Shown: positions 14,271 to 62,240 of the stretch, in pieces
How the letters are laid out: every line of letters starts with the position of its first letter
Position numbering within the stretch: the first letter of the stretch is position 1
Origin: Pseudomonadales bacterium
GTDB lineage: Bacteria > Pseudomonadota > Gammaproteobacteria > Pseudomonadales > CAWVSB01
Length of the DNA stretch: 64,000 nt
Reading direction: 5' to 3'
Assembly (NCBI GenBank): GCA_046710535.1
Contig: JBKEHH010000007.1
Location: 32,639 to 96,638, forward strand
Made by a program: the position numbers and the translations under genes
The notes under the pieces: model-generated
What the model saw: the letters and a program-made list of their open reading frames with translations, nothing else
What the model was told of the DNA's origin: nothing
The model's database searches: none

Positions 14271-15491
14271 ATGAATTTTGTTGTCTATGCAATTCCAGTT
14301 TTTATTTTGATGATAGCTATTGAATGGATTTGGGATAAGCGCCAAGAAAACAACTACTATCGACTTAACGATACGGTTAATAGCCTCAGCATGGGAATAC
14401 TGAGCACTACCAGTCGGTTAGTTTTTATTGATATTAGTGGGCGTGCATTTACGCTGTTACAGCAGCATTTTTCTATTGCCACTTGGGGTGAGGTCAATTA
14501 GTGGATGATTATCGTTGCCTTCGTCTTCTATGATTTCTGCTATTACTGGTTTCACCGTATAAGTCATGAGAAAAGTATTTTTTGGGCGTCCCATGTGGCT
14601 CATCATCAAAGTGAAGAATATAACTTAAGCACCGCATTGCGACAAACCAGCGCCAGCTTTTGGTTGGCGTGGGTTTTTTATGCGCCATGTTTTATATTGG
14701 GTATACCGGCGGAGCTTTTGGTCAGCGTGGCCAGTGCTAATTTGATTTATCAGTTCTGGGTGCATAAGCGCTATGTGCCACAGCCAGGGTGGTTTGAGAA
14801 AATATTTGTGAGCCCGTCAAATCATCGCGTGCATCATGCGCGTAATCCAGAATATATCGATAAGAATTATGATGGTATTTTTATTATTTTTGATCGAATA
14901 TTTGGCACCTATCTGCCCGAGCGTAAAGATTTGGCGGTAGATTTTGGTATTACCCGCGGCTTGAATAGTTGGAATCCATTGTGGGCTAACCTGCATGTAT
15001 ATGTCGGGATGATAAAAGACAGCATTGCTACTCCGCGCTGGGCAGATAAATTGCGGGTATGGGTTGGCGCCACCGGCTTTGTCGCGCCGGGTATTGTGAA
15101 GACTCCGGTTCAGGCTGGTAATTCGTATAATCCACCGTTATCAGTGGCACAGGAAACCTATGTAATTGTGCAGTTTGTATTGGTCTCTATGCTGTCTACT
15201 GCCATGTTATATAGTCAAGTAAGCTTTGATATCTTATTGATATTATTTGCTTTTTTACTGCTGTATCTGGTTTCAATTGGCTGGATTATAGATGGCAAGC
15301 ACTACACTATCGAATGGCTCAGAATGGCTCAGAATGGCTCAGAATGGCTCAGAATGGCCGTAGGGCTAGGCTTGTTATTCACAGAGCCTGCCCAGCAATT
15401 ATTAACTGTGTTGACGGCCGCATTAGTGGTTAACTTGCTATGGCTGATTTACTTGCAGCGACAGAAAAACGCTACTTTGGTCAATATTTAG
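14271..15491 (+). pseudogene. Sterol desaturase / fatty acid hydroxylase family gene interrupted by an in-frame TAG (14499..14501)
   Basis: Track ORFs 14271..14501 and 14505..15491 are in the same frame (...ATWGEVN*WMIIVAFVFYDFCYYWFHRISH...). The three His boxes HRISH, HVAHHQS and HRVHH all lie downstream of the stop. Confidence 0.75.
15312..15358 (+). repeat. Perfect 10-bp tandem repeat (GAATGGCTCA x4 plus a partial copy) inside the desaturase-family coding region
   Basis: Read directly: cGAATGGCTCAGAATGGCTCAGAATGGCTCAGAATGGCTCAGAATGGCCg. It is translated as EWLRMAQNGSEWLRMA. Confidence 0.9.
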
Positions 15492-15553
15492 GTTTATTGA
15501 GGGTGTTTTTTAGCCGTCCATGTGCTTGAATTTAAGCCATTGATAAAGCACAG

Positions 15554-16513
15554 GTGAAGAATAATAACTGCCTTGCTGAATTTAATTTCCAAAAGGGATT
15601 GGTGGACGGTATATACAAGCTGCAATATAGCGATTCTAGCAAAAATGTTTGGTTGACTGGTGACAAATTGAGCGTAGGGTCTGCCAACTCAAACGGTATC
15701 GCTGTGAGTGGTTCTGGGGTTGGGGAGCATCATGCTGATGTACGGGTTAATGGCGATAAAATCACCCTGTGTCCGATAGCTGGTTGTACTACGACGGTTA
15801 ATGGCGCAAAAGTTAACGCCAACAGAGACTTGCAGGTTGAAAATATCATGTCTTTTGCCAATGTGGGCATGAAATTAATACTGCCTGTGGAGCAAGCTAT
15901 CGGTGAGGCTGTAAAATCAACTCCCAAGGCACCAGATGCTAAAGTAAACCCTGAGTAAACCTGGCAAATTTTTGGCGCAGCAAAGCAAACCAAGAGTATC
16001 GTTGGTACAATAGTTGTCGGCCGTTCACCTGACTGCAGTATCACTTTTTCCCATGAACGCTTATCTCGTCGTCATGCTCAGTTTCATGAGTCTGATGGGG
16101 GTTTTTGGATTACCGATTTAGAGTCACCTAATGGCACTTTTGTTAATGGAAAACGGCTAGCGGCAGTTGAGCGCTTAAAAGATGGCGACAATATCTCTTT
16201 TGAAAAGCTGAAGTTTGTGGTTAACGCGCAAGCCCAAATGAGTTCAGCGGTTGCTGAAGACGAAGACGATGTCGGCAAAACTGTTGTCGGTTCAGCAATT
16301 AATTCTGAAGCGATCAAAAAAGCCCAAGCTGAACTAGTGAAAAGAAAGCGTCTGCAAGACGCTGAGCTAAAAATGGTGTCACAGCAAAATTTATAGTCTC
16401 AAGCTAAACTTAGGCCAGAAGCAGAAGGCGATGTCTCAAATATGATGATCATTGTGATAGTAGCAGTGGCTGTAGTGGCTGTTGCAGAAATCGCCGCAGT
16501 GGTATTAATGTAA
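15554..16513 (+). pseudogene. Tandem FHA-domain protein with a C-terminal TM anchor, one 320-codon frame with two internal stops (TAA 15956..15958, TAG 16394..16396)
   Basis: Own translation beyond track ORF 15554..15958. The same frame continues as TWQIFGAAKQTKSIVGTIVVGRSPDCSITFSHERLSRRHAQFHESDGGFWITDLESPNGTFVNGKRLAAVERLKDGDNISF..., then TAG, then ...NMMIIVIVAVAVVAVAEIAAVVLM, then TAA. Confidence 0.7.
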
Positions 16514-16532
16514 GCCTATTTTTCACCTTGTG

Positions 16533-17162
16533 CTATGCACTGTAGGCGCGCATAAAAACCTCAACGCAAGATTTCAAATAAGCCGCAGTCTTCTTTTTAG
16601 TAGGTGGGCGCATATTAAATAGCAGCATTTGGTGCGCATCTGCTTTAATCATAAAGGTAAATTGTCTAGCGGCAGCGTCAACATCTTCAATGTTTAAACT
16701 ACCAAGCCTATTTTGACTTTCGAGATAATTAGTAACTAGTTTGTTGATTTTTTGCGGACCATTTTCGTAAAACAGTTTGCTAAGAGTGGGGTGTGTGGGC
16801 GCAGTTGCGGCACATAGTCGAAACATTTTTATCGGTTCGTCAGATGTCAGTAAATCGTTCAAGTGCACCGCCAAATCAAGCATCATAGCTTCGCAAGAGA
16901 TATTGCGAGCAAAAAACTCTTCGGTTAAGTCGAACTCCTGTACTTTGTCTTCAATTGCAGCGCCAAACAGCGCTTCTTTTGACTGAAAATGGCTATAAAC
17001 CGTCTGTTTGGATACATCGGCCGAATTGGCAATATCATCCATAGTGGTGGAATCAAAACCTTGCTCCATGAACAGTTCGGCCGCCGCAGCAATAATCGCG
17101 CTGCGTTTGACTTGGCTTTTACTTCTGCCTTTGGAAGAGGTCTTTTTATTATCATTTGTCAT
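16533..17162 (-). CDS. TetR/AcrR family transcriptional regulator (divergent from the RND operon)
   Basis: 209 aa. N-terminal TetR HTH (AIIAAAAELFMEQGFDSTTMDDIANSADVSKQTVYSHFQSKEALF). Confidence 0.9.
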   Translation of the reverse strand: MTNDNKKTSSKGRSKSQVKRSAIIAAAAELFMEQGFDSTTMDDIANSADVSKQTVYSHFQSKEALFGAAIEDKVQEFDLTEEFFARNISCEAMMLDLAVHLNDLLTSDEPIKMFRLCAATAPTHPTLSKLFYENGPQKINKLVTNYLESQNRLGSLNIEDVDAAARQFTFMIKADAHQMLLFNMRPPTKKKTAAYLKSCVEVFMRAYSA

Positions 17163-17184
17163 TGCAATAAGCTTTATTTATCAT

Positions 17185-17199
17185 ACTAGACCGTCTAGT
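17185..17199. promoter_or_regulatory. Candidate TetR operator: perfect palindrome ACTAGAC-C-GTCTAGT in the TetR/RND divergent intergenic region
   Basis: Read directly. 7-bp arms around a single central base, located between the TetR start (17162) and the MFP start (17278). Confidence 0.4.
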
Positions 17200-17277
17200 T
17201 TAGTATTTGTTGATCTTATTTGCACCCCAGCCCGTAATTAAGTGGCATTTAGGTCGAATACATTTTAGGAGTTACCG

Positions 17278-18459
17278 GTGAAACGTTTTATTTTGACATT
17301 GTTGTCAGCAGGTTTTTTAGTCGCTTGCAGCGAAGAGCCGCAAGTGGTTTACCAAACAGTAACTGGTTTTACTCCGGTAAAGACCGAATATTATGAAGTT
17401 GAACGCTTGTTTATTGGTCGCGTTAGCGCAAGCCAGCAGGCAAATATAAGCTTTGAAACTCAAGGAATTGCTGAAGAGCTGTTGGTTGATCAAGGTGAAA
17501 AAGTGAGTAAGGGGCAAGCTTTAGCTAAGCTCGATATAAGCTTGTTGAAAACACAAAGCAGAGAACTGGCTGCGCAATTACGTGACACCAGGTCTCGTAG
17601 AACATTGGCCGAAAACAGCTTGCGTCGGCAAAAAGATTTAAAAGCAAATGGCTTTACTGCTGAGCAGCGAATAGACGAGCTAACGAGTGAAGTTGAGAGT
17701 TTGGTGGCAGTGCAGTCCAGGCTTGGTGCTTCATTGAACGCCAACGATATTCGATTAAAAAAAGCAGTATTAAAAGCACCGTTTACCGGCGTCGTAAGTC
17801 GTCGGTTCGTCGATGCTGGTACGGTTGTCGATCCAAGTCAGCCGATATTTCAAATAATTGATGAAGGTGGTTTAGAGTTAAATGTGGGGATTCCGGCTGG
17901 CTTAGTTGGCTCGCTAGTTACTGGTGATTCATATATTGCTCAAATTGACGGCGTTGAGACCATGGCGATATTTATTTCTGCTGCTGCTCATTTAGATCAA
18001 ATAAGCCAATCTGTACCAGTACGGTTTGCGTTAACTGATATTGAGGCGCGAGATGGGCAGACAGCAGTGGTCGGCATTACTAAAAAGCAGCAGATAGCTG
18101 GTTTTTGGGTGCCTATAGAATCGGTCACAGAAGGAATGCGTGGCTCTTGGGTTGTCTATGGGCTGGAAGGAAAGTCTGCGCTAAAAACACTGACGCAAAG
18201 TGCTGTTGAGATTTTACATGTCGATGATGATAGCTTTTATGTGAAAGCAGATATTACTGGCGATATCGTAGCCTCTGGAATGCACAAAGTCGTGCCGGGG
18301 CAGCTGGTGGAATTAGTTGTTATTGAAGCTGAGCAAGCGCCTACTATAGAGATAATTGATAGCGCCGGCGATCTGGCAGTAGTCGAGGGTGTTGTTTTAG
18401 ACCAGCCAGAACCTATTGCGCCTGGGGCAGATGAAAATTCTGCAGTGGTAGCTGAATAA
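17278..18459 (+). CDS. Efflux RND transporter periplasmic adaptor (MFP) lipoprotein
   Basis: 393 aa. Lipobox LLSAGFLVAC. Coiled-coil hairpin region and beta-barrel motifs. GTG start preceded by AGGAG. Stop overlaps the RND gene start. Confidence 0.9.
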   Translation: MKRFILTLLSAGFLVACSEEPQVVYQTVTGFTPVKTEYYEVERLFIGRVSASQQANISFETQGIAEELLVDQGEKVSKGQALAKLDISLLKTQSRELAAQLRDTRSRRTLAENSLRRQKDLKANGFTAEQRIDELTSEVESLVAVQSRLGASLNANDIRLKKAVLKAPFTGVVSRRFVDAGTVVDPSQPIFQIIDEGGLELNVGIPAGLVGSLVTGDSYIAQIDGVETMAIFISAAAHLDQISQSVPVRFALTDIEARDGQTAVVGITKKQQIAGFWVPIESVTEGMRGSWVVYGLEGKSALKTLTQSAVEILHVDDDSFYVKADITGDIVASGMHKVVPGQLVELVVIEAEQAPTIEIIDSAGDLAVVEGVVLDQPEPIAPGADENSAVVAE

Positions 18460-21581: not shown

Positions 21582-21625
21582 TGTGATATATTGCTCTAAC
21601 GAGAAATTAACACCGACCACTATTT

Positions 21626-22681: not shown

Positions 22682-22684
22682 AGA

Positions 22685-25587: not shown

Positions 25588-25596
25588 GAGAGAAAA

Positions 25597-36113: not shown

Positions 36114-36761
36114 TTAAACGCTTTGCCCATGCAGGTTTTTATTGGCCAAAATTTCCACCCCGGTATTGTCATTGTTGGCCGCTCTGATGAGCGCGCCAGC
36201 CACATCAGCCCCTTGTACTGATCTAATCGCTTTTGGCATTAGTGGAGTGACAATACTAAATACTGACTCCCCAAGGCGAAATTCGTCTCTGTTGCCAAGT
36301 AGCAGAGAGGGCTGGGCTATTGCAACATGTTGATAGTTGCTTTGTTTTAAAAAGTTTTCGACGGCGCCCTTATAATGAGAGTATTTAGACAGCGAACCTT
36401 CTTTTGCCCCTATAGCCGATACTAGGCCATAAAAACTCGCAGCAGCGGTTAAGCCTGCCTTGGCCAAATTAATTGGATATTCCATGTCAATTTTTTGATA
36501 CATGGACTTAGAAGGGGTCTTCTTAGCGGTTGTACCTAAAGCGCAGTAAACCTCATCAATTTTGTACTCGGCTAACTCTTGCTCCAACTGGTCAAAGTCA
36601 ATAACCATGACGCTAACCTTTTTATCATCGGCCCAGTCGGCAGATAGCTGGCTGCGACATAAGGCGATAACCTTGTCATAGCTTGAATGACTGCAAAGCT
36701 GGCGCACTATGTGCCCGCCAACAAGCCCTGTACTGCCTGCTACTAATGCTGTTTTTCCCAT
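36114..36761 (-). CDS. NAD(P)H-binding atypical SDR (NmrA/semialdehyde dehydrogenase-like)
   Basis: 215 aa. N-terminal GSTGLVGGH Rossmann motif. Confidence 0.75.
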   Translation of the reverse strand: MGKTALVAGSTGLVGGHIVRQLCSHSSYDKVIALCRSQLSADWADDKKVSVMVIDFDQLEQELAEYKIDEVYCALGTTAKKTPSKSMYQKIDMEYPINLAKAGLTAAASFYGLVSAIGAKEGSLSKYSHYKGAVENFLKQSNYQHVAIAQPSLLLGNRDEFRLGESVFSIVTPLMPKAIRSVQGADVAGALIRAANNDNTGVEILANKNLHGQSV

Positions 36762-38294: not shown

Positions 38295-39029
38295 ATGATT
38301 TTTCGCTTATGTGCTGTCAGTCTACTGCTGTTACTTAGCGCTGTTACTTATAGTGTTGAGTTTAAAAGTGGCGATAAGCAAGTTCAACTAATTGAGCTAT
38401 ATACCTCTGAGGGTTGCAGTAGTTGCCCTCCAGCAGATAATTTTTTAACTACGTTTTTAGATGATCCTACTTTATGGCACAGTCGAATACCGATAGCCAT
38501 TCATGTCGATTACTGGGACTACATCGGTTGGCAGGATCGCTTTGCTTCAAAAGAAAACTCTGCACGCCAGCGACTACATGCGCAACAAGGCAATGTATCT
38601 CAGGTCTATACGCCGGGTTTTATTGTCTCTGGTGAAGAATGGCGCAGCTGGTTTTTAGGTGATAGAACAATTCCGACCTCGCGCGCTTAACCTGGAGAAT
38701 TACTGTTAAGCGTTGATGATAAATCGTTTAATGCCAGTTTCTCTCCCATTAAAAATGTTGGCAGTAAATTAGAACTGCATCTGGCACTGCTCGGTTTCGG
38801 TCTGGTTAATGACATAGACGCTGGCGAAAATCACGGCCGCAAGCTCGCGCATAACTTTGTTAAATTAAGCGAAACCGTTGTTATTAGTCGAGACCAATCA
38901 TGGCAGGGTGAATTGCCAAGCATTCCACAAAATATGCAAGATTATAAGCAATTGGCAGTGGTTGCTTGGGTCAACAGCGTAAAAAATATTAAATCAATAC
39001 AGGCAACTGGTGGCTGGCTAGAAAACTAA
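38295..39029 (+). pseudogene. DUF1223 (thioredoxin-like CxxC) secreted protein gene interrupted by an in-frame TAA (38688..38690)
   Basis: The track lists only 38295..38690 (ELYTSEGCSSCPPAD motif). The same frame continues after TAA for 112 codons (PGELLLSVDD...DAGENHGRKLAHNFVKL...GGWLEN*) to 39029. That gives the usual DUF1223 length of about 244 codons. Confidence 0.75.
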
Positions 39030-39119: not shown

Positions 39120-40028
39120 ATGACGCTATTAAACTTGCTACGCCCATTAGGGCTGTCGTTGGCATTTTTGCTAACTACGCTGCTGACAGTTAATGCTAAC
39201 AGCGCACATCATGAAGACTCGCCTAGATTCAGTATTACACCTGTTACAGACAACTTATCAATGCTACAAGGTAGAGGCGGTAATTTAGCGCTGTTAACCG
39301 GCGACCAAGGTCTGCTGTTAGTCGATAACGACTACCAAGACATGTCTGTTGCCTTAGAAGCTGCTTTAGCGGGTTACGGTGGGGCTGACAAGCTTACCTA
39401 TATTATTAATACTCATTGGCATGGTGATCACACTGGAGGCAACTTAGCACTGGGGCAATATGCCAATATTGTTGCTCACGACAATGTGCGTAAGCGCCTG
39501 TTAAACGCCCAAGAAATCAAGTTGTTTAAGATGAAGTCTGACCCTTATCCAGAGATTGCGGTTCCTTCCATCACTTATGAAAAAGCTATGTCTTTGCATA
39601 TTAATGGCGAAGAAGTCGAGCTGGTACATTTTGCCGGTGGTCATACCGACGGCGACTCCATAGTGTTTTTCAAAAGTGCCAATGTAGTCCATACCGGTGA
39701 TCATTTCTTTAACGGTTTTTTCCCATTTGTCGATGTCGACAGTGGCGGCAATGTTTTGGTGCTGGCAGAAAATGTTAAGTTGCTGCTTGGCATGATTGAT
39801 GACAATACTAAGATAATTCCTGGCCATGGACCGTTGGCTAACAAAGCCGATTTGATGGCGTTTGCACAAATGCTGGAAGGCACGGCGGCTGAGGTCAAGG
39901 CCATGAAAGATAAGGGTTTGAGTTTAGCTAAAATCCAGCAGCAGGGTTTAAGTGACAACTGGCAGTCGTGGACTGATGGTTTTTTAACTACTGATGTTTG
40001 GATCTCGATCGTCTACAACAGTTTGTAA
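39120..40028 (+). CDS. MBL-fold metallo-hydrolase, exported
   Basis: 302 aa with a signal peptide. HWHGDHTGG (HxHxDH) motif and a downstream GHGP motif. Confidence 0.85.
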   Translation: MTLLNLLRPLGLSLAFLLTTLLTVNANSAHHEDSPRFSITPVTDNLSMLQGRGGNLALLTGDQGLLLVDNDYQDMSVALEAALAGYGGADKLTYIINTHWHGDHTGGNLALGQYANIVAHDNVRKRLLNAQEIKLFKMKSDPYPEIAVPSITYEKAMSLHINGEEVELVHFAGGHTDGDSIVFFKSANVVHTGDHFFNGFFPFVDVDSGGNVLVLAENVKLLLGMIDDNTKIIPGHGPLANKADLMAFAQMLEGTAAEVKAMKDKGLSLAKIQQQGLSDNWQSWTDGFLTTDVWISIVYNSL

Positions 40029-43229: not shown

Positions 43230-45068
43230 ATGAGTAATAACATGTTTAAGTTCTTTGAAAATTTAGTCGACCCGTTTCCGCTAAAGCACCCTGAGCAACC
43301 CCCGTTAGGCTTGTTTAAATTCTGCCGTTACTATACCAAAGGTTTAGAGCCTTATCTGATTGCAATGGCAGTACTAACTGTTATTACAGCAGTAGGTGAG
43401 GCTATGTTATATGCGGTGTTAGGGCAGGTGGTAGATTGGCTAGCCAGTCAAAGTCCAGAACACTTTTTTGCCGAACAATGGCCATTATTACTGGGCATTT
43501 CTCTCTATGTGTTAATTTTTATCCCGATTACTGTTTTATTGCATGCCTTAATTATTAATCAAACACTGATGGGAAACTTTCCCATGTCAGTTCGATGGAT
43601 GGCGCATCGTTATTTACTCAGTCAAAGTTTTTCTTTTTTTCAAAATGAATTTAGTGGTCGTATTGCAACCAAGGTCATGCAAACAGCATTGGCAGTGCGC
43701 GATTCGGTAATGAAGATATTAGATGTGATGTTATTTGTAGTCGTCTATATGGTGACTACGGTGCTATTGGTTGCCAGCTCAGATTGGCGCTTAAGTGTGC
43801 CAATAATTATTTGGCTAGTGCTATACATATCAATATTGCGATACTTTGTTCCTAGACTGCGAGATATATCTACTCTGCAAGCAGACTCACGCTCGTTAAT
43901 GACCGGGCGTATTGTTGATAGCTATACCAATATAGTTACCCTCAAATTGTTTTCTCGGATAAATCGCGAGTCAGAGTATGTAAAAGAAGGGATGACTGGG
44001 TTTTTACAAACCGTACATCCACAGATGCGCTTAGCCACCATGCTGGAGTTTTGTGTGTGGATTTTGAATATGTCATTGATATTCTTTACTGGCTTGCTGG
44101 GCATTTTACTCTGGCAAAATTCAGCGATAACTCCCGGTGCTATTGCTATTGCTATGGCTATAGCGATTAGGCTTGCGGGCATGTCTCACTGGATTATGTG
44201 GGAGGTAAGTAACTTATTCGAAAATATCGGCACCGTACAAGATGGTATGAATACCTTGTCACTCTCTCAATCGATTACTGATAAGCCTGATGCTAAACCA
44301 CTACAAGTTAGCCATGGTGAGATTAATTTTGACCAGGTAGATTTTGCCTATGGTAATAGTGACTTGGTGTTCGAAGATTTGTCAGTAGTGATCAAAGCTA
44401 GTGAAAAAATTGGTATTGTTGGGCGCCCAGGTGCGGGTAAATCCACCTTAGTTAATGTTCTGTTACGGTTTTATGATGTGCAAAGTGGTTGCGTTTTAAT
44501 TGACGGTCAAGATATTCGTGATGTTAGCCAGCAAAGTTTACGAGCTAATATTGCCATGGTGACTCAAGACACCTCACTGCTATTTCGCAGCGTACGTGAA
44601 AACATTATGTTCGGTAGGCCTGAAGCCACTGAAGCAGAAATGATTGCGTGTGCTAAGCAAGCGAAAGCCTATGAGTTTATTCAAACTTTAACTGATATTA
44701 ATGGCCGTAAAGGCTTTGATGCGCATGTTGGCGAGCGCGGGGTCAATCTGTCTGGTGGCCAGCGTCAACGTATCGCTATTGCCCGTGTGCTGCTTAAAAA
44801 TGCCCCAATATTGGTTTTAGACGAGGCAACTTCGGCGCTGGATTCAGAAGTAGAAGTGTTAATACAGCAAAGCTTATATGAGTTGATGGAAGGTAAAACA
44901 GTTATCGCTATTGCCCACCGGTTATCAACCATTGCTGCTATGGACAGGCTGCTGGTATTTGATGAAGGTAAAATTGTAGAGCAGGGTAGCCATCAACAGC
45001 TGCTGCTTAACAACGGCTTGTATGCCCAGTTGTGGCAGCATCAGTCAGGTGGTTTTCTTGGCGAGTAG
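43230..45068 (+). CDS. ABC transporter, fused permease/ATP-binding protein (exporter type)
   Basis: 612 aa. N-terminal 6-TM domain. Walker A GRPGAGKST, signature LSGGQRQRIAIAR, Walker B ILVLDEATSALD. Confidence 0.9.
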   Translation: MSNNMFKFFENLVDPFPLKHPEQPPLGLFKFCRYYTKGLEPYLIAMAVLTVITAVGEAMLYAVLGQVVDWLASQSPEHFFAEQWPLLLGISLYVLIFIPITVLLHALIINQTLMGNFPMSVRWMAHRYLLSQSFSFFQNEFSGRIATKVMQTALAVRDSVMKILDVMLFVVVYMVTTVLLVASSDWRLSVPIIIWLVLYISILRYFVPRLRDISTLQADSRSLMTGRIVDSYTNIVTLKLFSRINRESEYVKEGMTGFLQTVHPQMRLATMLEFCVWILNMSLIFFTGLLGILLWQNSAITPGAIAIAMAIAIRLAGMSHWIMWEVSNLFENIGTVQDGMNTLSLSQSITDKPDAKPLQVSHGEINFDQVDFAYGNSDLVFEDLSVVIKASEKIGIVGRPGAGKSTLVNVLLRFYDVQSGCVLIDGQDIRDVSQQSLRANIAMVTQDTSLLFRSVRENIMFGRPEATEAEMIACAKQAKAYEFIQTLTDINGRKGFDAHVGERGVNLSGGQRQRIAIARVLLKNAPILVLDEATSALDSEVEVLIQQSLYELMEGKTVIAIAHRLSTIAAMDRLLVFDEGKIVEQGSHQQLLLNNGLYAQLWQHQSGGFLGE

Positions 45069-45151
45069 AAAAGCTATTACTTTGCAGATAGTGGCACGAC
45101 AGTTTTGGGCTGCTACATTTGTGTTCAAATATTTATCCTAAAGAGCTAGTT

Positions 45152-45952
45152 ATGTCGCAAACAAAATTTGATCAAGATACAGCCATAAGCCAAGTTAGTG
45201 AATTGGTGTGGCAAGCCGAGCTCGATGCTGGTTGGTGTGTTGGGCCGGTACCAAACGGCGGTTATGTTCTTGCAATTGGTGCCAGAGTATTGAGTGCCGC
45301 ATTGCCCCATAAAGATCCTCTGACAACCAGTGCTTACTATTTTGCACCCACTCATGCCGGGCCAATTAAATGTCAGATGGAAGTTATTAAGCAGAGCGGC
45401 TCTACCGCATTCGGTATGGTACGTATGTATCAAGATGATGAGTTAAAAGTACAAATAACCGCTTCGTTTACGACTCTTGCTCAAATGAGAGGTGAAAGTC
45501 TACAGCTCGACCCCGCTCCGCCAGTGGCAAAATTAGTAGATTGTGTAAGAGTGCCATCGGCTGATTTTATCCAGATTGGCAAGCAAACCATCCAAATGAT
45601 TGAGCCCGGTATGGAGCAAGCGTTTGTAGGTAAACCCACCGGTGAAGGCGAGTTTGCTGGTTGGGTCAGCTTACCCGATACAGACGAAGCTGATTTGTTT
45701 GCCTTACTAATGTTTAGTGATGCCATGCCACCACCGGTATTTAATATTTTTGGTGCTTTAGCATAGGTGCCAACCATAGAATTAAATGTTCAAATTAGAG
45801 CTATGCCAGCGCCTGGGCCAATCCAGTTTAAATTCAGTAGTCGTAATTTAACCAACGGTCTAACTGAAGAAAACGGTTGGTTATGGGATAGCACCGGTAA
45901 GCTAGTGGCGATGAGCCGACAAACAGCAAAATTTAGAGTTGCCAAACAATAG
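45152..45952 (+). pseudogene. Acyl-CoA thioesterase-like (double hotdog, 4HBT_3-type) gene interrupted by an in-frame TAG (45764..45766)
   Basis: Track ORFs 45119..45766 and 45767..45952 abut in the same frame: ...PPPVFNIFGALA*VPTIELNVQIRAMPAPGPIQFKF...WLWDSTGKLVAMSRQTA. Together they make one thioesterase-length protein. Confidence 0.7.
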
Positions 45953-50030: not shown

Positions 50031-51251
50031 TTACTGGTCAACATAGGTGGAAATTGCTCGCAGCATTGTTACATTTTCATTCATATGGGCAGTAAAGTTT
50101 GGGTCTACGGCCGTCCGGGCAATAACCACTCCCCGTTTTTCATCCACCCAAATATGTTGGCTCCAAATACCTGATGCAAAATATTCTCGGTCATAGTCTT
50201 CAGGCACCCACCATTGGTATTGATAGCCGCGGTAGCCTCTTACGTTTTTAGGCTGTACATGGGGGCTGTCAGGTGTAGTGGCTTCCACTATCCATTGTTT
50301 AGATAGCAACTGTTGGCCATTCCAGACGCCGCCTAATCGATATAGTTCGCCCAAGTGGGCAAAATCTCTAAGGGTCGCGTTAAGGCAGCAAAAAGTGACT
50401 GCCGACTTTTCATCACTGCTATCTAGTAACCAATTGGCATCTGACCCCATCCCTGCAGGTTGCCATAGCCGTTGTTCAATAATTTCTGCGAATGGCCTTT
50501 ACATGACCTTTTCAACTAGCCAGCCTAAAATTTGAGTGTCACTAGAGCGATACTCCCAGCGGCTGCCTGGCTCTTCTTTTTTGCCATAGTCACCGGCTAA
50601 CTGATTCATATTGAGGCCAAATATCCATGCGGCATTAGTTATCTTTTGCACATCTGAAAAAGCTAATGCGGTGTTGCTGCCAGCCGCACCATAAGATTCA
50701 AAAAAATCTACGCCGGATGACATTTGCAACACATCTTTAATGGTCGCTTCGCCATATGCTTTACCGCTTAATTCAGGAATATACTTTTGGACTTGGTCAT
50801 CAACGCTGGCAATTAAACCATCGTCAATTGCCATGCCTACCATGGTAGAGACAAAGCTTTTTGCGACCGACCAGCTTGTGTGCAAACTGTCTTTAGTTTC
50901 ACCTAGGCGATATTGCTCGTGGATAACAATTCCGTCTTTAATAACAATTAAACCAGTAGTATTAGTGCGTTCTAAATTGTCTGACAGGGCAATAGTTTTA
51001 CCGTCAAACTGATAGCTAAACTCTAACGGCTTAGACTGATTTGGCCACTGATGAGTTTGCTCTGCTTTGTGAATAGGCTGTGATGGATAGAGTTTATCCA
51101 TATTGCGAAAATGCTCGACGCGCTCACCCTCTAAAAAGGTTCTAGTCATGTCGGCAGGCGAGTACTCAGCCCAAGGTTGATAGAAGATAAGCGCTGCGGT
51201 TATAACTATCATCAGCAGTATGGCGCCGATAGCTTTTAGCCATGGTGACAT
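50031..51251 (-). pseudogene. Beta-lactamase-family serine hydrolase gene interrupted by an in-frame TAA (50499..50501)
   Basis: Track ORFs 50499..51251 (SxxK motif SWSVAKS) and 50031..50450 share one frame: ...ILGWLVEKVM*RPFAEIIEQRLWQPAGMGSDANWLLD... The bridging 16 codons are typical family sequence. Confidence 0.75.
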
Positions 51252-54854: not shown

Positions 54855-55510
54855 AAACCACAGAGCAGCTAACAAAGTCGACTGAGCAAACCACGCTGCA
54901 TTATATTTACGACCCAATGTGTAGCTGGTGTTGGGGCTTTAGGCCAACTTGGAATGCCATTCAGGCAGGCTTACCCCAAGGTGTTGCCGTAGAATATGTA
55001 GCCGCTGGTTTAGCCCCTGATAGTGATCAGCCTATGTCGCAAGCCATGCGTGAAACTATTGAAGGTTATTGGCATGAAATTGAGCGTAAGTTAGGCGCCG
55101 AGTTTAACTATGAATTTTGGCGCTTAAATACACCACGGCGCGCAACCTATAATGCGTGCCGCGCGGCTATTGCCGCCAAGCTGCAGGGGCGAGAGGAAGC
55201 TATGGTGAATGCTATCCAACAGGCTTACTATTTACGTGCAATGAATCCATCGGATATATCGATGTTAGTGGGCTTGGCTCAAGAGCTTGCAGAAAATGAT
55301 GATGACTTCACTGTTGATCAATTTAAGCAAGATCTAACCTCCATTGAAGTAGACCAAGAATTTAACCGTCAGCGAGATTTTGCCCAGCAAATTTCATCCC
55401 AAGGCTACCCATCTTTAGTGTTAAAATATCAGAATGTGCATTACCCCATAGTACGCGACTATCTCAATGCCGATGCGGCATTAAACGATATTAAGCAGCT
55501 ACTAAATTAA
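54851..55510 (+). CDS. DsbA-family thioredoxin-fold protein
   Basis: 219 aa. CSWCWG (CxxC) near the N-terminus. 4-bp overlap with the upstream gene. Confidence 0.8.
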   Translation: MKTTEQLTKSTEQTTLHYIYDPMCSWCWGFRPTWNAIQAGLPQGVAVEYVAAGLAPDSDQPMSQAMRETIEGYWHEIERKLGAEFNYEFWRLNTPRRATYNACRAAIAAKLQGREEAMVNAIQQAYYLRAMNPSDISMLVGLAQELAENDDDFTVDQFKQDLTSIEVDQEFNRQRDFAQQISSQGYPSLVLKYQNVHYPIVRDYLNADAALNDIKQLLN

Positions 55511-55529
55511 TCAAATCGAGGAATTATTA

Positions 55530-56135
55530 ATGTCAGAGATTGGCAGAGTGCTATTGGTACGTCATGGGCAAACGTTTGCCAATATTAATAAAGTTTGGCA
55601 TGGCCATACCGATACCGCCTTAACCAAGGAAGGTGAAGGCCAAGCGATTATGCTAGGGAAGTATTTTCATAATTATCTGCCGCAAGTTCATGCTATCTAT
55701 GCCAGTCCATTACAGCGTGCCCACAATACTGCTAAGCAAATAGCGCTTAATAGCGGCGCAGAAATTGGCCTAGACGCGCGCTTAATGGAGTTTGGTGTAG
55801 GCGACTTTGAAGACATGAGCTTTGATGAATTATCTGATACTCATGACTTTTTTGCCAAAATGATGGCTGATGAGCATCACCGCGCACCCAACGGAGAGAC
55901 CCGCTATGAAGTAGGTAAGCGTTTTGTTGAAGCGGTGGAAGAAAAAGCTGATCAGCATCAAGGCGAGAATATAGTCATTGTCGCTCACGGTATTTCTATT
56001 GGTTGTGGTCTTGCCCATTGGGAGCATAACGACACCGCCAAATGGGTAGATTATCGTTTAGGTAACACCTCTGTGAGTGAGGTAAATTTAGCCACCGGAA
56101 GCGTAATCTACTTTAATAAAAGTGAGCATATTTGA
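55530..56135 (+). CDS. Histidine phosphatase family protein (phosphoglycerate mutase-like)
   Basis: 201 aa. LVRHGQT catalytic RHG motif and a downstream AHG motif. Confidence 0.85.
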   Translation: MSEIGRVLLVRHGQTFANINKVWHGHTDTALTKEGEGQAIMLGKYFHNYLPQVHAIYASPLQRAHNTAKQIALNSGAEIGLDARLMEFGVGDFEDMSFDELSDTHDFFAKMMADEHHRAPNGETRYEVGKRFVEAVEEKADQHQGENIVIVAHGISIGCGLAHWEHNDTAKWVDYRLGNTSVSEVNLATGSVIYFNKSEHI

Positions 56136-56138
56136 TTG

Positions 56139-56753
56139 CTAGCTCGCAATGCCCCAATAATTAAAGCCAGCAATCTTTGGGGTGCTGGGCAAATACATAC
56201 TGTCTAAACTGTCGATGGTAAAACCGCCTTGGCGCAACAGTTGTGGAATGTCGCGGTTTATATTGCAGCCGCCAAATAGTACTTTCCAGGTTGGGTTTAT
56301 GCGGTTTTGCCATTTGCTCACGGTCGCATCTGGCGCTTGGCCATGCTCACAAAAAATTAGTTTACCATTGGGCTTTAATACGCGGCGCATTCCCTCTAGC
56401 GCAGTGACTGGGTCAGGTATGGTACACAAGCTATAGGTGACTAATACAGTATCTATACTGTTGTCGTCTAATGGTATTTGCTCACTGGGCAGGCCAATAA
56501 ACTCTACCTCGAAGGGCAAGTTTTCGGCGCGCTCGCCAGCTAATTTCCACGACGCTTCTGATGGGTCTAAACCAATCACTTTTTCTACTTTATTGGCATC
56601 GTAATAATCTAGATTGATGCCAGTGCCAATACCTATCTCTAAGACTCGACCACTGGCTAATGGCACTACTTTCTCTCGCTGTTTTAAAATTGGCTTGGTG
56701 CCGCAGGCACAGTTAATAATATGCGGCATTACCTTGTCTTCATAAAAACTCAT
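56139..56753 (-). CDS. Class I SAM-dependent methyltransferase
   Basis: SAM motif I VLEIGIGTGIN plus LKPNGKLIF. The track start is 56801. ATG 56753 (MSFYEDKV) is plausible. Confidence 0.85.
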   Translation of the reverse strand: MSFYEDKVMPHIINCACGTKPILKQREKVVPLASGRVLEIGIGTGINLDYYDANKVEKVIGLDPSEASWKLAGERAENLPFEVEFIGLPSEQIPLDDNSIDTVLVTYSLCTIPDPVTALEGMRRVLKPNGKLIFCEHGQAPDATVSKWQNRINPTWKVLFGGCNINRDIPQLLRQGGFTIDSLDSMYLPSTPKIAGFNYWGIAS

Positions 56754-56902
56754 CACTAAACCCTTATTTTTTGGTATTAACAAATTATGCACTGGCCGCA
56801 TTAAATATGCGAGTGAGTCTCGGCTATTCTTCTATGAGGTAACAAAGGGGCTATATTCAGTGAATAAATTAAACGGATTTTTAATGGACAAAGGACAGTG
56901 TC

Positions 56903-57460
56903 ATGGCCATTTCTATTCAGTATCAAAAATATCGCGAGCAAATGAAAAATGGCGATATATTATTATTTAAGGGTAGTAATATTCTTTCCCAAATAATCCA
57001 ATGGCGTACTGGTTCAGTTTATAGTCATGCTGGCTTAGTGGTGTGGTGGAATGGCCGGCTAATGGTATTAGAGGCAATGGGGCGCGGAGTGGTGGTTGCG
57101 CCAATATCTTATAACTTAAATCACTACAAAGGCGATATAGACTATTTTAGGCCGACCATTGAATTGTCAGATACACAGCGTTTGGCGATGGTTTCATTCG
57201 CTCAAAATCAGTTGAGTAAAAAGTTCGGTTTAATAAAAATTATCAGTTTTTTCATCAAGCTAATGGCCGGCATAAAGCTGGCCAAACTCGATTCGTTAAA
57301 GCCTAAAGGTAAATACTTTTGTTCAGAATATGTCGCGCAAATCTATAATATCGTTGGTATAGACCTAGTGCCAGATTTTAGCGAGTCTTACACATCGCCA
57401 GATAAACTAGAGAAATCTGAGTATTTGGAGATAGTCGGTACATTGTTGAATGCTGACTAA
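56903..57460 (+). CDS. YiiX/DUF830-like permuted papain-fold (NlpC/P60-related) protein
   Basis: 185 aa. GDILLFKG...YSHAGLV (His region) precedes the FCSEYVAQIY (Cys region), the permuted order typical of this family. Confidence 0.6.
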   Translation: MAISIQYQKYREQMKNGDILLFKGSNILSQIIQWRTGSVYSHAGLVVWWNGRLMVLEAMGRGVVVAPISYNLNHYKGDIDYFRPTIELSDTQRLAMVSFAQNQLSKKFGLIKIISFFIKLMAGIKLAKLDSLKPKGKYFCSEYVAQIYNIVGIDLVPDFSESYTSPDKLEKSEYLEIVGTLLNAD

Positions 57461-57564
57461 CGTAAACCTCAGTTTTGTATGTTTAGTAAATTCCGATACT
57501 GCTAGGTTTAATCGGTTAGCAGTATGTCAGCCATTAACAAAGGATCGCCAAATAATACTGATGC

Positions 57565-58329
57565 CTAGTGAAATCCGAACTGACGTGCCATTAGTTTACT
57601 CGCTAGCGATTGCGGTAGAAAGCGCAGTACAAAGTCCAATATTCTGACGTTACCGCCAACTATAATACTTTGCTTGTTGGAGTGTGTTGCAGCCCAAATA
57701 GCGCTAACAATATCTTCTGGTTTTAAGTCGACTCCCATTAAATCCAATAATTGATTAGGCACTGCGTCTAGCATACCGGTAGCAACAAACCCTGGTTTGA
57801 TTAACGTCACTCTGACACCGTGCTGCTTCCACTCGATGCTCAGAGCCTCACACAATCCTCTTACATAAAATTTGGTGGCAGCATAGACGCCAAGCAATGG
57901 TACTCCTCTAATACTCGACGCTGAGCATAAGCAGACCATAATAGAGTTCTCAGTTTCTTGTAGATATGGAAAACCTAATTGAGCCAAATAAGTAAAACCT
58001 TTCACATTAATATCAATCATCAAATCATGTGCGGTGTGATCGATTTCAGAAAATTTACCACCACTTAAAACGCCAGCATTATTAATAATGACATTAATTT
58101 TTCCATTGGTCATTTTGGTGAAGTGTTCAAGAGCTGACCGCACAGAACTATGATCAGTAACATCACAGCGGCTGCCACATGCGTTGCTGAATTCAGCGGT
58201 TTGCAACAGTTCAGTTACGCCAGATTCATTAATGTCGTAAAGCCCCACAAACCAACCTTGGGCGGCAAAATGTTGAGCGGTAGCTAAACCAATGCCGGAG
58301 GCCGCGCCGGTAATAAATACTGACTTCAT
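57565..58329 (-). CDS. SDR family oxidoreductase
   Basis: 254 aa. TGAASGIG cofactor motif, NNAG, and the YAATK (YxxxK) catalytic motif. Confidence 0.9.
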   Translation of the reverse strand: MKSVFITGAASGIGLATAQHFAAQGWFVGLYDINESGVTELLQTAEFSNACGSRCDVTDHSSVRSALEHFTKMTNGKINVIINNAGVLSGGKFSEIDHTAHDLMIDINVKGFTYLAQLGFPYLQETENSIMVCLCSASSIRGVPLLGVYAATKFYVRGLCEALSIEWKQHGVRVTLIKPGFVATGMLDAVPNQLLDLMGVDLKPEDIVSAIWAATHSNKQSIIVGGNVRILDFVLRFLPQSLASKLMARQFGFH

Positions 58330-58406
58330 CAGAAATTCCCCTTACTTTATTTTATATTATTGCATACAGACTATGCAGCAAATTGTTATCGGGCTTCACA
58401 TAAAGG

Positions 58407-58964
58407 CTAATTACTGTCAATAGCAATGACTAAAGTAGAAATAATTTTATAGTAACTAAAAATAACGACAAGGAAAAAAATGAATAGGAGCATCTCATGC
58501 TTAAAATGATGGCGCAGGTAGAAATAGCGGTCTTTATGGTGCAGCACGTCCATTAATTCATCGACGAAGCGAATAGAAAGAAATGTATCGATAACAGATA
58601 AGAAAATAACAATCCAATATGGATAAGGGTTGGTTAATATGACTTTTATGAGTTGGGTAAGAAAGGTAGTCTCATAAAATTCACTGAAATACATTAAGCA
58701 AAAAACATTGATCAATATAGCAATCGCCCATACAACTATTTCCTATAATATCATGCTGATACCAAATATAAGCATCAGCGGGAAATCTAATAAGAAGCCA
58801 GCATCGGCAACTGGTATGCATAGTACAAAAAAGCTCCATGTTATTAAGGCTGCTATACTTCCAGTTAATAAATCATACTGATAGGTTAAATACATAAAAT
58901 AAAAAAATAACAGCAAACATAGTAATAGAAACTTTATTAATACCTGGTGACGAGGATGCTTCAT
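58407..58964 (-). pseudogene. Hypothetical polytopic membrane protein written as two in-frame ORFs separated by TAG (58743..58745)
   Basis: Track ORFs 58743..58964 and 58407..58715 are in the same frame: ...LIFGISMIL*EIVVWAIAILINVFCLMYF... A hydrophobic helix runs through the junction. Confidence 0.55.
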
Positions 58965-59044
58965 GGCCTTCTTATTAACCTGGTTTGTTGATTAATTGTT
59001 TGCTTATACAGTCTAGTGATTAATAGGTTCGTCAGATGAAAAAT

Positions 59045-59263
59045 TTATTGATGTGACGATTTTACTTGGAACTCAATTTATTCGCCTGAGCTATCACGCT
59101 CATGTTCTATATTATATTGAGCTCTTACCGGCACATAAATTCCCTCGTTAGCAATTTGGATCTCAAATTTCTCACCACTTTTTAAAGCGTCTGCTAGACG
59201 GCGAAGCTTTGAAACGAATTTAGCAGTAGAGTAATCTTTTTCTATATCACGTTCCTCTTTCAT
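59045..59263 (-). pseudogene. Amphi-Trp domain protein with an in-frame TAA (59078..59080) ten codons before the frame's final stop
   Basis: ...EHERDSSGE*IEFQVKSSHQ*. The family normally ends in an acidic stretch followed by ELEhEhKW, which corresponds to the segment after the TAA. Confidence 0.5.
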
Positions 59264-59383
59264 TATTGGGCCTACTAAATAGAAGTGGAAGAGAGTGTCG
59301 TCATCTCGCTAGGCTGAAATAAACCCAGCGAAAGGGATGCTCAGTCCGCGTGGATATCACGCGGGCAGTCGAGTCTGGCTTGA

Positions 59384-59857
59384 CTACGTTTTTGCTGTTG
59401 CTCTTAACATCCACGCTGTTTTTTCATGTATGCGCATGCGATCAGAAACTAACGATGCTGTTGATTCATCATCAGCAGCTTGTGCTATTTTCAATACTTC
59501 ACGGGAGGTCTTAATGACTTGTTCATGACCTTTTGTTAGCAGCTCAACCATCTCTGCTGAACTCGGAACACCATCTACCTCTTTAATGGAGCTGAGTTTT
59601 GAAAATTCTTTATAAGTCCCAGGTGCCGGCACATCAAGCGTTCGAATACGTTCAGCAATATCATCGACAGCAATTGCCAATTCCGTATAGTGCTCCTCAA
59701 ACATTAAGTGCAATTCACGAAAGTGTAATCCCGTAACATTCCAATGAAAATTATGGGTTTGTAAATATAGCGTGTAAGAGTCTGCTAGAAGTTTCTTTAA
59801 ACCTTCAGAGATTTCTGTTCTATTTTCTTTGCTTATACCGATGTCTATAGCTGTCAT
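59384..59857 (-). CDS. dps: Dps family DNA starvation/stationary phase protection protein
   Basis: 157 aa. The ferritin-like pattern [19 protein letters not shown]......D..AER is diagnostic for Dps. Confidence 0.9.
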
Positions 59858-59914
59858 TTTATAGCCTCATATTTAAAGTTATGATGAATTGTTAATTCTT
59901 GCTTAGTGACGAAT

Positions 59915-60396
59915 TTAGCTAACGGTCGTCATCGCTTGGTCTCTTTTATTTTTTAGAATGCAATTAATCTTATAGTCAAAATATAATAGTGAAAGCCCAG
60001 TTGTCCAAAAGCCATGAAAGCATGTATTTTTTTCACTATCTAGATAGCAATATGTATTCAGTCTATTTCTTGCTTTAAAGCTCCATAGAATAAGCATTGT
60101 TATTCCAGTGGTATCTACTAGTTTACTAAGCCACTCTATGGGATGTCCTTTCTCAGCAAAGAAACAGGTAATAAATAGAAAAAGCGAAGCATATAAGATA
60201 ACAATTAGTGAGTTTATGAAGCCAACATATACTGTTTTCTATTGTCGACGGCAGAGTTTATTACGGTCGATCGACTTTGAATATAATAGGCAAAATAGAC
60301 ACCGTAGGTAATTACGCCCAAGCTGAGTAGCTCCCATATACTTTGGTTTTTTAAATGTTCTATAAATCCCTTATTTCTCATACTTTGTCCTAACAA
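59915..60396 (-). pseudogene. DUF4234-like small membrane protein gene with a frameshift near 60225-60245
   Basis: ORF 60214..60396 (SIWELLSLGVITYGVYFAYY) ends at TAA. A different frame is open from 60240 (KTVYVGFINSLIVILYASLFLFITCFF...) into track ORF 59915..60097. The junction is at an AGAAAACAG tract. Confidence 0.5.
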
Positions 60397-60473
60397 CTAA
60401 AACTAAGGAGGTATGCTGTCAGTTAAAGTGTATATCTGCTGTGCGGCCTTGCTGCGAGCGCTGCCTGTGGTTT

Positions 60474-61013
60474 TTAGAGGGCACTTGTGGATACCGCGAA
60501 TACTAGGTCGTTCTGTATCTCGCCGCCGATGTGGAATTCATGACTTCCCACTTCTTTAAACCCAAGCTGTCTATAAAATGCGATAGCTTTTAGGTTTTCT
60601 TCCCATACCCCAAGCCAGATATTTTCATGGGACATCGCATAAGCTATTTTTCCGACTCTGGAAAGTAATTGCCGGCCGACCCCCAAACCATGGCTCGACT
60701 TATCAATATATATTCGCCAAAGCTGTGCTGAAATGTCCAAGCTGATGGTCTTCGGGATTGGATTCAAGCGGAGCTGAGCATAGCCGACCAATAGTTGGTC
60801 AATCTCTACCAAAAGGGTTGTTACATTAGGGTCCGACAATTGAGCCTGTTGCTGGCTACTGGTAAAACTTTCCTTGATATATGACGCCAAAATATCAGCA
60901 GACATGCTGTCAGCGTAGGCTTGATGAAATAGCTTTGCCGCTAAATGAGATAGTCGAAGCGCATCTTTGTTATTGCCGATCGATATAACTATTTTTCGTT
61001 CAATATCGGTCAT
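60474..61013 (-). CDS. GNAT family N-acetyltransferase
   Basis: 179 aa. Acetyl-CoA binding motif HGLGVGRQLL and the FY..LGF motif. Confidence 0.85.
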   Translation of the reverse strand: MTDIERKIVISIGNNKDALRLSHLAAKLFHQAYADSMSADILASYIKESFTSSQQQAQLSDPNVTTLLVEIDQLLVGYAQLRLNPIPKTISLDISAQLWRIYIDKSSHGLGVGRQLLSRVGKIAYAMSHENIWLGVWEENLKAIAFYRQLGFKEVGSHEFHIGGEIQNDLVFAVSTSAL

Positions 61014-61335
61014 GTTTAAGAGTGCCTCCTAATACTGAGAGCAAGGATATTGTCATTCAGTTAAAGTTTTATAGCTTGTTGCATAGCATTATTAGATCCT
61101 TGTGCTCGCCACAGCAGTGACCCCGTCATTTACCTCTGTGCCCGTATAACATTACCTTAGTTCACGTTAACTTATTCTTTGTTGATTTTTTATCGGCAAA
61201 ATCTACAACCGTTGCAGTATTGGCTGTAGGATTGATGATCGCAGGAAAACCCAAAAATACGGTAACCAATTTAGCATAGAAGTCAGCCGTTTAGCTCTTA
61301 TCTCTCTGCTGAGCTGACGCTTGATACTCTTTGCG

Positions 61336-61602
61336 TCAAAGTTTTTCGGCCGGTTCTTCCTTTTTATCTTCAGCCTTTTTAACCCGTATTTTATTACTTC
61401 CGACAGTTTTGTTGTTGAGGTTTTTAGTTGCGGCTTTTGCTTCACCTGATTTTGGCATCTCAATAAAAGCAAAACCTTTAGATGCTCCACTAACGCGGTC
61501 GATGACTAACTTGCAAGATTGTACGACCCCAAATTCTTGAAATAAAACTGTTAGTTCTTGTTCTGTAGTTGATCGATCTAAGTTACGTACTAATAATTTC
61601 AT
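61336..61602 (-). CDS. RRM-domain RNA-binding protein
   Basis: 88 aa. RNP2 LLVRNL and RNP1 KGFAFIEM motifs. Basic/acidic tail. Confidence 0.9.
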   Translation of the reverse strand: MKLLVRNLDRSTTEQELTVLFQEFGVVQSCKLVIDRVSGASKGFAFIEMPKSGEAKAATKNLNNKTVGSNKIRVKKAEDKKEEPAEKL

Positions 61603-61708
61603 ATAGTTTCCGATTGGTAATTTTTCGTTATGAGTTAATTTAATATATTGCTATGAGACCTGCGACGTTACAGCCATCAACCTATGTGCGGTGTGATTTT
61701 ATAATTTC

Positions 61709-62240
61709 TCAATCACTGCGCGATAATAAAAAGTATTCGGTTGATCGGAGGACTTCTGCGCAATCATAAGCTTTTGCTGATCTTTATTTTTTCAGAAGTA
61801 ATTTATCAATCTTATTTAACGGCTATTCAGGAAAGTACATTTGTGTAATAAGCTCAACATACTCCCTTTTCGTCACCTTAAAATTAATATGTGGAGGTCG
61901 AACCCATCCCAGCGCAACTGGATAAGAACCAGGCAATACCGTCTAAAATTTGAATTCTCCATCTTTACCGGTCTAAACTATGGCCCAGCCCTGAAATTTT
62001 TCGTCCGCCGGTGCTAGGTTAGAATCATGTGGCTGGCGATATTTCCCGGCCGCCTTAGCTTGCCACATATCAATAGTAGCGTTCTCTACAGGGAGCCCCT
62101 CTGTGTCAACAATACTTCCATAGACAAAGATATGCTCTTCCAATGCCTCCATGTTACTATTATCAACGGTGATAAGATAAAAATCTTTATTTTTTTACGC
62201 AATTACTGGGTGGAACGGCCCCTTTATTTCGGCCGTCGTC
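61709..62240 (-). pseudogene. Intradiol ring-cleavage dioxygenase-family remnant with five in-frame stops and no frameshift
   Basis: Own translation, not in the track: TTAEIKGPFHPVIA*KNKDFYLITVDNSNMEALEEHIFVYGSIVDTEGLPVENATIDMWQAKAAGKYRQPHDSNLAPADEKFQGWAIV*TGKDGEFKF*TVLPGSYPVALGWVRPPHINFKVTKREYVELITQMYFPE*PLNKIDKLLLKK*RS... Stops at 62195, 61973, 61943, 61823 and 61784. No start codon found. Confidence 0.65.

Follow-up and report, generated by a model that had tools for sequence, protein, structure and literature searches.

Probable recent inactivation of dispensable accessory genes by lineage-specific nonsense mutations in an uncultured marine Porticoccus-like gammaproteobacterium

Introduction

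Why are eight unrelated genes on one short stretch of bacterial DNA interrupted in frame by TAA or TAG? The question concerns a stretch of 64,000 nucleotides (the window, whose coordinates are used throughout) of contig JBKEHH010000007.1 from a metagenome-assembled genome (MAG), in which recognisable genes appear to continue in the same frame across 13 internal stop codons. An earlier interpretation of the letters alone, referred to below as the sequence-only reading, had offered three explanations for them: substitution errors in the assembly, recent pseudogenisation under a strongly GC>AT-biased mutation spectrum, and partial tolerance through suppression or leaky termination. Comparisons with syntenic relatives favour, at a probability of about 0.7, the recent inactivation of dispensable accessory genes by lineage-specific nonsense mutations in an uncultured marine Porticoccus-like gammaproteobacterium, as a case of ordinary decay. 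Each stop would go back to a sense codon, still present in the sister populations, that was changed by a single ordinary substitution, and TAA and TAG would continue to act as normal terminators.

The window belongs to a 156,441-bp MAG contig filed at NCBI ('MAG: Pseudomonadales bacterium') and at JGI/IMG, and exact look-ups placed its proteins at NCBI under MFQ3323987 to MFQ3324035 with locus tags ACI90U_0018xx. The closest named relatives of the organism are 'Porticoccus sp.' MAGs, and it is regarded as a marine gammaproteobacterium because one related contig is also present in Tara Oceans data. A sister population with full synteny to the window and 91-96% nucleotide identity is known from metagenome assemblies (JGI 3300041950 to 3300041954, 3300046534 and 3300055726; Logan SRR25824424, SRR25824425 and SRR28961194), and its contigs are mutually 99.4-99.9% identical. 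The intact orthologues used for reference include those of the sister contig Ga0455761_048150 and of further lineages. More distant lineages at 86-88% identity (L099, L103, L104 and L105) served as outgroups. The set of species-representative genomes, one per species, holds no close relative of the window lineage; the best match to FadH in this set has 77% protein identity and lacks synteny to the interrupted genes.

In-frame stop codons and their ancestral codons

All 13 TAA and TAG triplets listed in the sequence-only reading are present at their positions and in the right orientation. Codon alignment to the relatives showed that 12 of them each lie one substitution away from a sense codon, with the third lineage concordant where available. 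For these 12, one gene does continue in frame across the stop when compared with the sister, whereas the thirteenth (TAA 61784) belongs to a frameshift and is treated with its gene below. The changes are TGG>TAG, CAA>TAA, CAG>TAG and AAA>TAA, each seen twice, and AAG>TAG, TTG>TAG, TCG>TAG and GAA>TAA, each seen once. The orthologues of all eight genes are uninterrupted at the syntenic sites, and Pfam domains span or flank the stops (FA_hydroxylase, two FHA, DUF1223, 4HBT_3/4HBT_3C, Beta-lactamase, a weak Amphi-Trp and Dioxygenase_C).

Two of the stops on the forward strand replace a tryptophan. The gene of a fatty-acid hydroxylase or alkylglycerol-monooxygenase-like protein (14271-15491; 396 residues in relatives), called the desaturase below, is interrupted at Trp77 by TAG 14499-14501 (TGG>TAG), and that of an acyl-CoA thioesterase of the 4HBT_3/4HBT_3C families (45152-45952; 265 residues in relatives) at Trp205 by TAG 45764-45766 (TGG>TAG). 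The sequence-only reading had placed tryptophan at both positions in homologues, and TGG is present at both in two other lineages. The tandem-FHA gene (15611-16513, forward strand; 300 residues in relatives) carries two stops, TAA 15956-15958 at codon 116 and TAG 16394-16396 (TTG>TAG) at codon 262. The former corresponds to AAA in the sister and to GAA in the third lineage. In the DUF1223 gene (38295-39029, forward strand; 244 residues in relatives), codon 132 has become TAA 38688-38690 (AAA>TAA).

The remaining interrupted genes are on the reverse strand. The gene of a serine hydrolase, similar to class-C beta-lactamases (50031-51251; 406 residues in relatives), lost Gln251 to TAA 50499-50501 (CAA>TAA). 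The gene of a small membrane protein with no Pfam family (58407-58895; 162 residues in the sister) has TAG 58743-58745 at codon 51 (TCG>TAG), and that of an Amphi-Trp domain protein (59045-59263; 72 residues in the sister) has TAA 59078-59080 at codon 62 of 72 (GAA>TAA).

The intradiol dioxygenase remnant (61699-62296, reverse strand; 209 residues in relatives) has four substitution stops (62195 CAA>TAA, 61973 CAG>TAG, 61943 AAG>TAG and 61823 CAG>TAG). It has also lost its start codon, 10 bp between 62247 and 62246, and a further 2 bp. The histidine of its catalytic PHIHF motif is changed to asparagine. The 2-bp deletion removed two As from a run of eight, between 61793 and 61792, and past it the reading continues in another frame (KNKDQQKLMIAQK...). 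Because this deletion just upstream moves the true frame elsewhere, TAA 61784 is a by-product of the frameshift rather than a nonsense substitution. The neighbouring glyoxalase/VOC gene (62297-62481, reverse strand) is truncated by a 318-bp deletion with its junction at 62297/62296. The lost stretch comprises the 3' end of the glyoxalase gene, the spacer between the two genes and 20 bases at the start of the dioxygenase gene, its start codon among them. The sequence-only reading had counted only two frameshift-type lesions; the 10-bp, 2-bp and 318-bp deletions of the dioxygenase locus have to be added to that count.

A further nonsense substitution, absent from the sequence-only reading, lies at 45066-45068 in an ABC transporter gene (43230-45068, forward strand), where the penultimate codon changed from CAG to TAG and the former TAA is now AAA. 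The product is one residue shorter and the change is harmless. The terminators of two neighbouring genes, this transporter and the thioesterase, are each displaced by one codon (45063-45071 and 45947-45952); in the thioesterase gene TAA became CAA and a new TAA stands one codon later.

The desaturase gene also carries a repeat. A 10-bp unit, GAATGGCTCA, occurs in 4.7 copies at 15312-15358 compared with 1.7 copies in the relatives, an expansion of exactly 30 bp that remains in frame and adds EWLRMAQNGS.

Selection and age of the lesions

Private changes were assigned to branches by comparison of three lineages, and pairwise dN/dS values are concordant with the branch-private counts. In addition to its stop, the desaturase gene has 15 nonsynonymous (N) and 4 synonymous (S) private changes, compared with 2 N : 10 S in the sister and 77 N : 224 S in the intact genes of the window (Fisher P = 4e-6). 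The dioxygenase gene has about 12 N : 6 S (P = 5e-4) besides its four stops and three deletions. Both genes evolve neutrally on the window branch and are real pseudogenes of some age. The private changes amount to 6 N : 17 S in the serine hydrolase, 2 N : 4 S in DUF1223 and 18 N : 34 S in the thioesterase, the last mostly in an imported N-terminal segment. Downstream of the stops the counts are 2 N : 4 S, 2 N : 3 S and 0 N : 1 S, respectively, too few for separate assessment. The stops in these three genes look very recent, or tolerated. The FHA gene is fast-evolving in every lineage. The interrupted genes other than the desaturase and dioxygenase show no clear surplus of amino-acid changes and were hit too recently or evolve too fast for their decay to be graded.

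These patterns are compatible with lesions of two ages. The two older loci, the desaturase and the dioxygenase/glyoxalase pair, decay neutrally, and the dioxygenase locus has gathered deletions as well. The interrupted copies of DUF1223, the thioesterase and the serine hydrolase would be very young loss-of-function alleles, probably still segregating and either mildly deleterious or neutral. Gene loss by point mutation may thus be ongoing in one clone-like lineage that was sampled once. Judging from the sequences, the truncated genes are probably non-functional. In the scenario of the sequence-only reading that invoked pseudogenisation, the one-step stops and the two neutrally evolving loci bear out the recent pseudogenisation itself; its mutational rider is considered with the spectrum below.

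Alternatively, the stops could be substitution errors or rare variants in the consensus of a low-coverage metagenome assembly. The stop alleles are confined to the source contig and to Logan contigs of one run, which are short (3-4 kb) and suggest modest coverage, and no surplus of missense changes goes with the young stops. The desaturase TAG allele and one of the dioxygenase TAG alleles had no match in exact-pattern scans of JGI metagenomes, which likewise did not recover the source contig. However, six or more error stops would need an error rate of ~0.25%, which would bring roughly 50 extra missense changes into the polarised intact genes. There is no room for these random errors because the N:S of the intact genes (77:224) is not above that of the sister (101:234). 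The p450 gene, in particular, has no nonsynonymous difference in 408 codons despite 23 synonymous ones. No internal stop was found in the ten longest genes of the window (AcrB-like, M16 peptidase, AceE, AceF, PPDK-like, FadH and others), which hold 39% of the coding DNA (P about 0.02-0.03), and the sole nonsense change in a long gene is that in the penultimate codon of the ABC transporter. The desaturase and dioxygenase genes, moreover, carry many further lineage-specific changes and indels. Two assemblers also gave identical sequence: over 3.3 and 4.2 kb, two stops included, the Logan contigs of SRR28961167 match the window at 100% identity, although this run may stem from the same reads or library as the JGI assembly, which would limit its independence. 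The remaining stop-bounded protein fragments are also listed with Logan as source. With stops that avoid the longest genes, no missense inflation and a Logan assembly identical over two stop-bearing segments, the assembly-error option of the sequence-only reading is disfavoured and appears quite unlikely.

Nonsense and frameshift lesions

Nonsense and frameshift lesions were counted over the 53 kb aligned to the sister. This census found eight internal nonsense substitutions in seven genes and no frame-disrupting coding indel, in agreement with the dominance of in-frame nonsense reported in the sequence-only reading, as far as recently hit genes are concerned. The coding indels measure 3, 3, 9, 24 and 30 bp, all multiples of three, and there is one 1-nt indel at 36761. 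The latter falls at the annotated start of an epimerase gene that remains a complete open reading frame (ORF) of 215 residues, the length called in two other contigs.

The noncoding DNA of the same alignments contains 325 substitutions and 19 indels, 18 of which are frameshifting and most of which lie outside long homopolymers. Old remnants show indel ratios similar to or above those of noncoding DNA. Since a random coding substitution is nonsense in about 4.2% of cases, the noncoding indel ratio predicts about 1.3 frameshifts per nonsense mutation under neutrality. The 8:0 ratio has a P of about 0.06-0.10 if the coding indel rate is three- to four-fold lower. Three clear pseudogenes of the clade, with 2 frameshifts vs 9 stops in about 85 substitutions, give a hint of such a lower rate in intact coding DNA. 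In the sister population itself, considered for its ratio of indels to single-nucleotide polymorphisms, no indels were seen outside a misaligned end; the region is 94% coding and hence uninformative. The predominance of nonsense among the young lesions may reflect chance in a small sample or a scarcity of indels in coding DNA that is still intact.

Mutation spectrum and the missing TGA

The 12 substitutions comprise six GC>AT transitions, two GC>TA and four AT>TA changes, where the stop at 15956 is scored as A>T from the AAA of the sister; a GAA ancestor would make it G>T (GC>TA). From codon usage, a transition bias of 2-4 gives expected numbers of 4.0-6.0 GC>AT, 1.9-2.5 GC>TA and 2.6-3.5 AT>TA, and the same expectation places about 1.5-2 changes in two classes that were not observed. 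The observed spectrum equals the expectation from codon usage, and a GC>AT or mutator signature was rejected. The strong GC>AT, mutator or mutagen rider that the sequence-only reading had attached to recent pseudogenisation therefore falls away, the spectrum being that of codon usage with an ordinary transition bias.

A recent episode of substitution-only hypermutation, through a defect of proofreading or oxidative repair or through an external mutagen, would generate many point mutations with few indels. It would fit the dominance of point-mutation lesions with transversions well represented, and the larger number of genes hit than in the sister. However, no single class is enriched beyond what codon usage predicts, and the sister has the same synonymous branch length and the same N:S in its intact genes. 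The spectrum itself has little power here because only stop-creating classes are observable. Hypermutation is considered very unlikely.

TGA is missing from the spectrum altogether. From the codon usage of the window, TGA is expected to make up ~23% of new nonsense mutations over a range of spectra, compared with 0 of 12 observed (P about 0.04). A Dps/ferritin pseudogene of the sister does include a TGG>TGA change.

Readthrough and recoding

Several observations weigh against the inactivation of these genes by ordinary decay. Under a simple first-hit model with the noncoding ratio, eight nonsense and no frameshift lesions among the young ones have a P of about 0.001-0.003, and 8 of ~60 genes were hit in the window compared with one in the sister at similar synonymous branch lengths (P about 0.02). 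The missing TGA is weak evidence in the same direction. Translated Salmonella pseudogenes comprise 55 with frameshifts vs 35 with nonsense mutations (PMC9122581). The serine hydrolase, DUF1223 and thioesterase genes show no excess of amino-acid change, and their normal N:S leaves continued function possible. There is no general relaxation of selection in the window lineage, where the N:S of intact genes is 0.34, compared with 0.43 in the sister and roughly 0.32-0.35 in the outgroups. The stop-bearing lineage, finally, is known from a single sample, and the Logan run may derive from the reads behind the JGI assembly. The count statistics were selected post hoc from few events (8-12), and the nonsense/frameshift and gene-hit numbers are suggestive.

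These numbers bear on a partial tolerance of UAA and UAG, in which an ochre-type suppressor tRNA or weakened termination makes in-frame stops cheaper than frameshifts. The eight young nonsense lesions without a frameshift, in lineages whose neutral DNA has many indels, would be expected from such tolerance, as would the lack of TGA among the 12 stops at an expectation of 23%, the eight genes hit vs one in the sister without a raised N:S in intact genes, and the normal N:S of the serine hydrolase, DUF1223 and thioesterase genes. However, the desaturase and dioxygenase genes decay neutrally and hence are not maintained. The terminators of the 48 intact genes (27 TAA, 15 TAG and 6 TGA) are nearly all the same as in the sister, and 42 of them are TAA or TAG. 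The stops replaced residues of many kinds (W, K, L, Q, S and E), no shared sequence context was found around the stops, and neither a tRNA nor any Rfam family was found within the window. The Dps/ferritin pseudogene of the sister, TGA included, shows the same pattern of stops without frameshifts, and the statistics in favour of tolerance are those picked after the fact from few events. Suppression or leaky termination is kept alive at a low probability because no young frameshifts were seen, though frameshift pseudogenes usually outnumber nonsense ones; as an explanation of the stops it is unlikely.

There is no reassignment of the code because TAA and TAG terminate 42 of the 48 intact genes; stop-codon reassignment was rejected on these terminators and on the restriction of the hits to eight short accessory genes. 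Pyrrolysine or selenocysteine recoding was likewise rejected, given the mix of TAA and TAG, the lack of TGA, the unrelated genes and the diverse ancestral residues; the search for pyl and sel genes was confined to the window. Ambiguous decoding is the stage thought to precede stop-codon reassignment. A Porticoccus-like lineage with a natural UAR suppressor or weak termination would be a free-living bacterium at this stage, with frameshifts purged, but such a state is improbable and there is nothing positive in its favour.

Comparison with known systems

Unitary nonsense pseudogenes have been catalogued in Salmonella Typhi and Paratyphi A, Shigella, Mycobacterium leprae and Sodalis. As in these sets, each interrupted gene of the window has a syntenic intact orthologue and a stop that is one substitution away, and the older cases show relaxed selection followed by indels. 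In contrast to those host-restricted pathogens and symbionts, this gammaproteobacterium appears to live freely in the sea, and no insertion sequence elements are involved. The young lesions also differ from the known sets in being all nonsense, and the intact genes show no genome-wide relaxation of selection.

An ochre suppressor with the anticodon UUA would allow the reading of both TAA and TAG. The restriction to these two codons is shared with ochre or amber suppression and with reassigned codes (codes 4, 25 and 15). However, unlike in such systems, TAA and TAG terminate most intact genes of the window, and no essential or long gene has an internal stop.

In-frame stops occur widely in bacteria and do not persist for long (Belinky et al. 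2021, PMC7918605). Like the stops of that study, those of the window interrupt genes that are otherwise well conserved and show few other changes or none; among these, the three that could be polarised have a dN/dS below 1. However, Belinky et al. (PMC7918605) used stops shared by at least two genomes, whereas every stop here is private to one assembly, and the density of 7-8 genes in 64 kb is high in comparison. In the 'pseudo-pseudogenes' of Salmonella (Feng et al. 2022, PMC9122581), genes with in-frame stops yield full-length product through low-level readthrough; by analogy, some such product might still be made from the window genes. UAG is prominent in both and accounts for 7 of the 12 stops of the window. 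No C-rich -1/+4 context, as reported for the Salmonella genes, was seen around these stops, and frameshifted genes are recoded in Salmonella as well (PMC9122581 for the Salmonella data).

In the window, the decay of genes through point mutations in an uncultured marine bacterium is well resolved, down to the ancestral codons, the mutation spectrum and, roughly, the ages of the lesions. The split ORFs of the deposited MAG merit pseudogene flags, and one site described as nonsense and both sites described as frameshifts in the sequence-only reading need to be re-described. Should the restriction of young lesions to TAA and TAG hold genome-wide, it would suggest stop-codon tolerance in a natural population and would bear on the onset of genetic-code change.

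The variable window end and the mosaic genome

Both lesions that the sequence-only reading had taken for frameshifts lie near the end of the window. The one near 60.23 kb does break the reading frame of a DUF4234-like small membrane protein (59915-60396, reverse strand; the match to DUF4234 is weak), which is split into two frames there. However, this gene is an old remnant: it is out of frame in third-lineage contigs too, and 438 bp of it (window 59935-60372) are missing from the sister. The lesion placed at 63.54 kb is no frameshift but the deletion junction at 63462-63468, where 6.3 kb of the sister (L100 3235-9556) are absent from the window.

In every lineage, the stretch from 56000 to 64000 (L100 1-10000) is accessory DNA that varies and decays; in the window it is also AT-richer than the rest (39.6% GC against 43-46%). 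A MarC remnant at 61029-61335 differs from the sister by six 1-bp indels, and the same end also holds a truncated DUF2238 gene; the sister has a run of sulfatase and ring-hydroxylase fragments. The glyoxalase gene of the third lineage (L103 4725-5144 and L104 ~3250-3800; window ~62300-62500) also looks degraded: it contains indels and an in-frame stop, and the product called from it has no recorded Pfam hit. From these alignments the loss of the glyoxalase seems to be independent in the window and the third lineage.

The sister has a decaying gene of its own in this region. Its Dps/ferritin pseudogene (L091 ~1390-1870; window 59384-59857) carries four stops (TAT>TAG, CAA>TAA, AAT>TAG and TGG>TGA) and has lost its start (ATG>CCG) and its terminator, with no frameshift. 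The window copy is intact at 157 residues.

Synonymous divergence (dS) between the window and the sister contig L082 is uneven across 4256-25484, ranging from ~0.04 to >2 in adjoining genes. The enoyl-CoA hydratase gene ECH_1 has a dS of about 2.06, Aldedh 0.10 and an acyl-CoA dehydrogenase gene 0.60 (compare 8639-9415 with 10594-11982), and one block of the serine hydrolase gene matches a different lineage. On this uneven divergence, the window genome looks like a recombination mosaic.

Sister proteins nearly identical to those of window 62646-63023, 61339-61602, 56142-56801 and 39120-40025 are filed under MAGs named Porticoccus sp., Alphaproteobacteria bacterium and Chitinophagales bacterium, which suggests that the binning or the taxonomy of these MAGs is in error. 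One contig of the sister population, L083, has lost the start codon of ECH_1 (ATG>AAG, at ~5143; window ~9415), a lesion of the substitution type. Apart from this loss, the contig is 99.8% identical to the neighbouring sister contigs.

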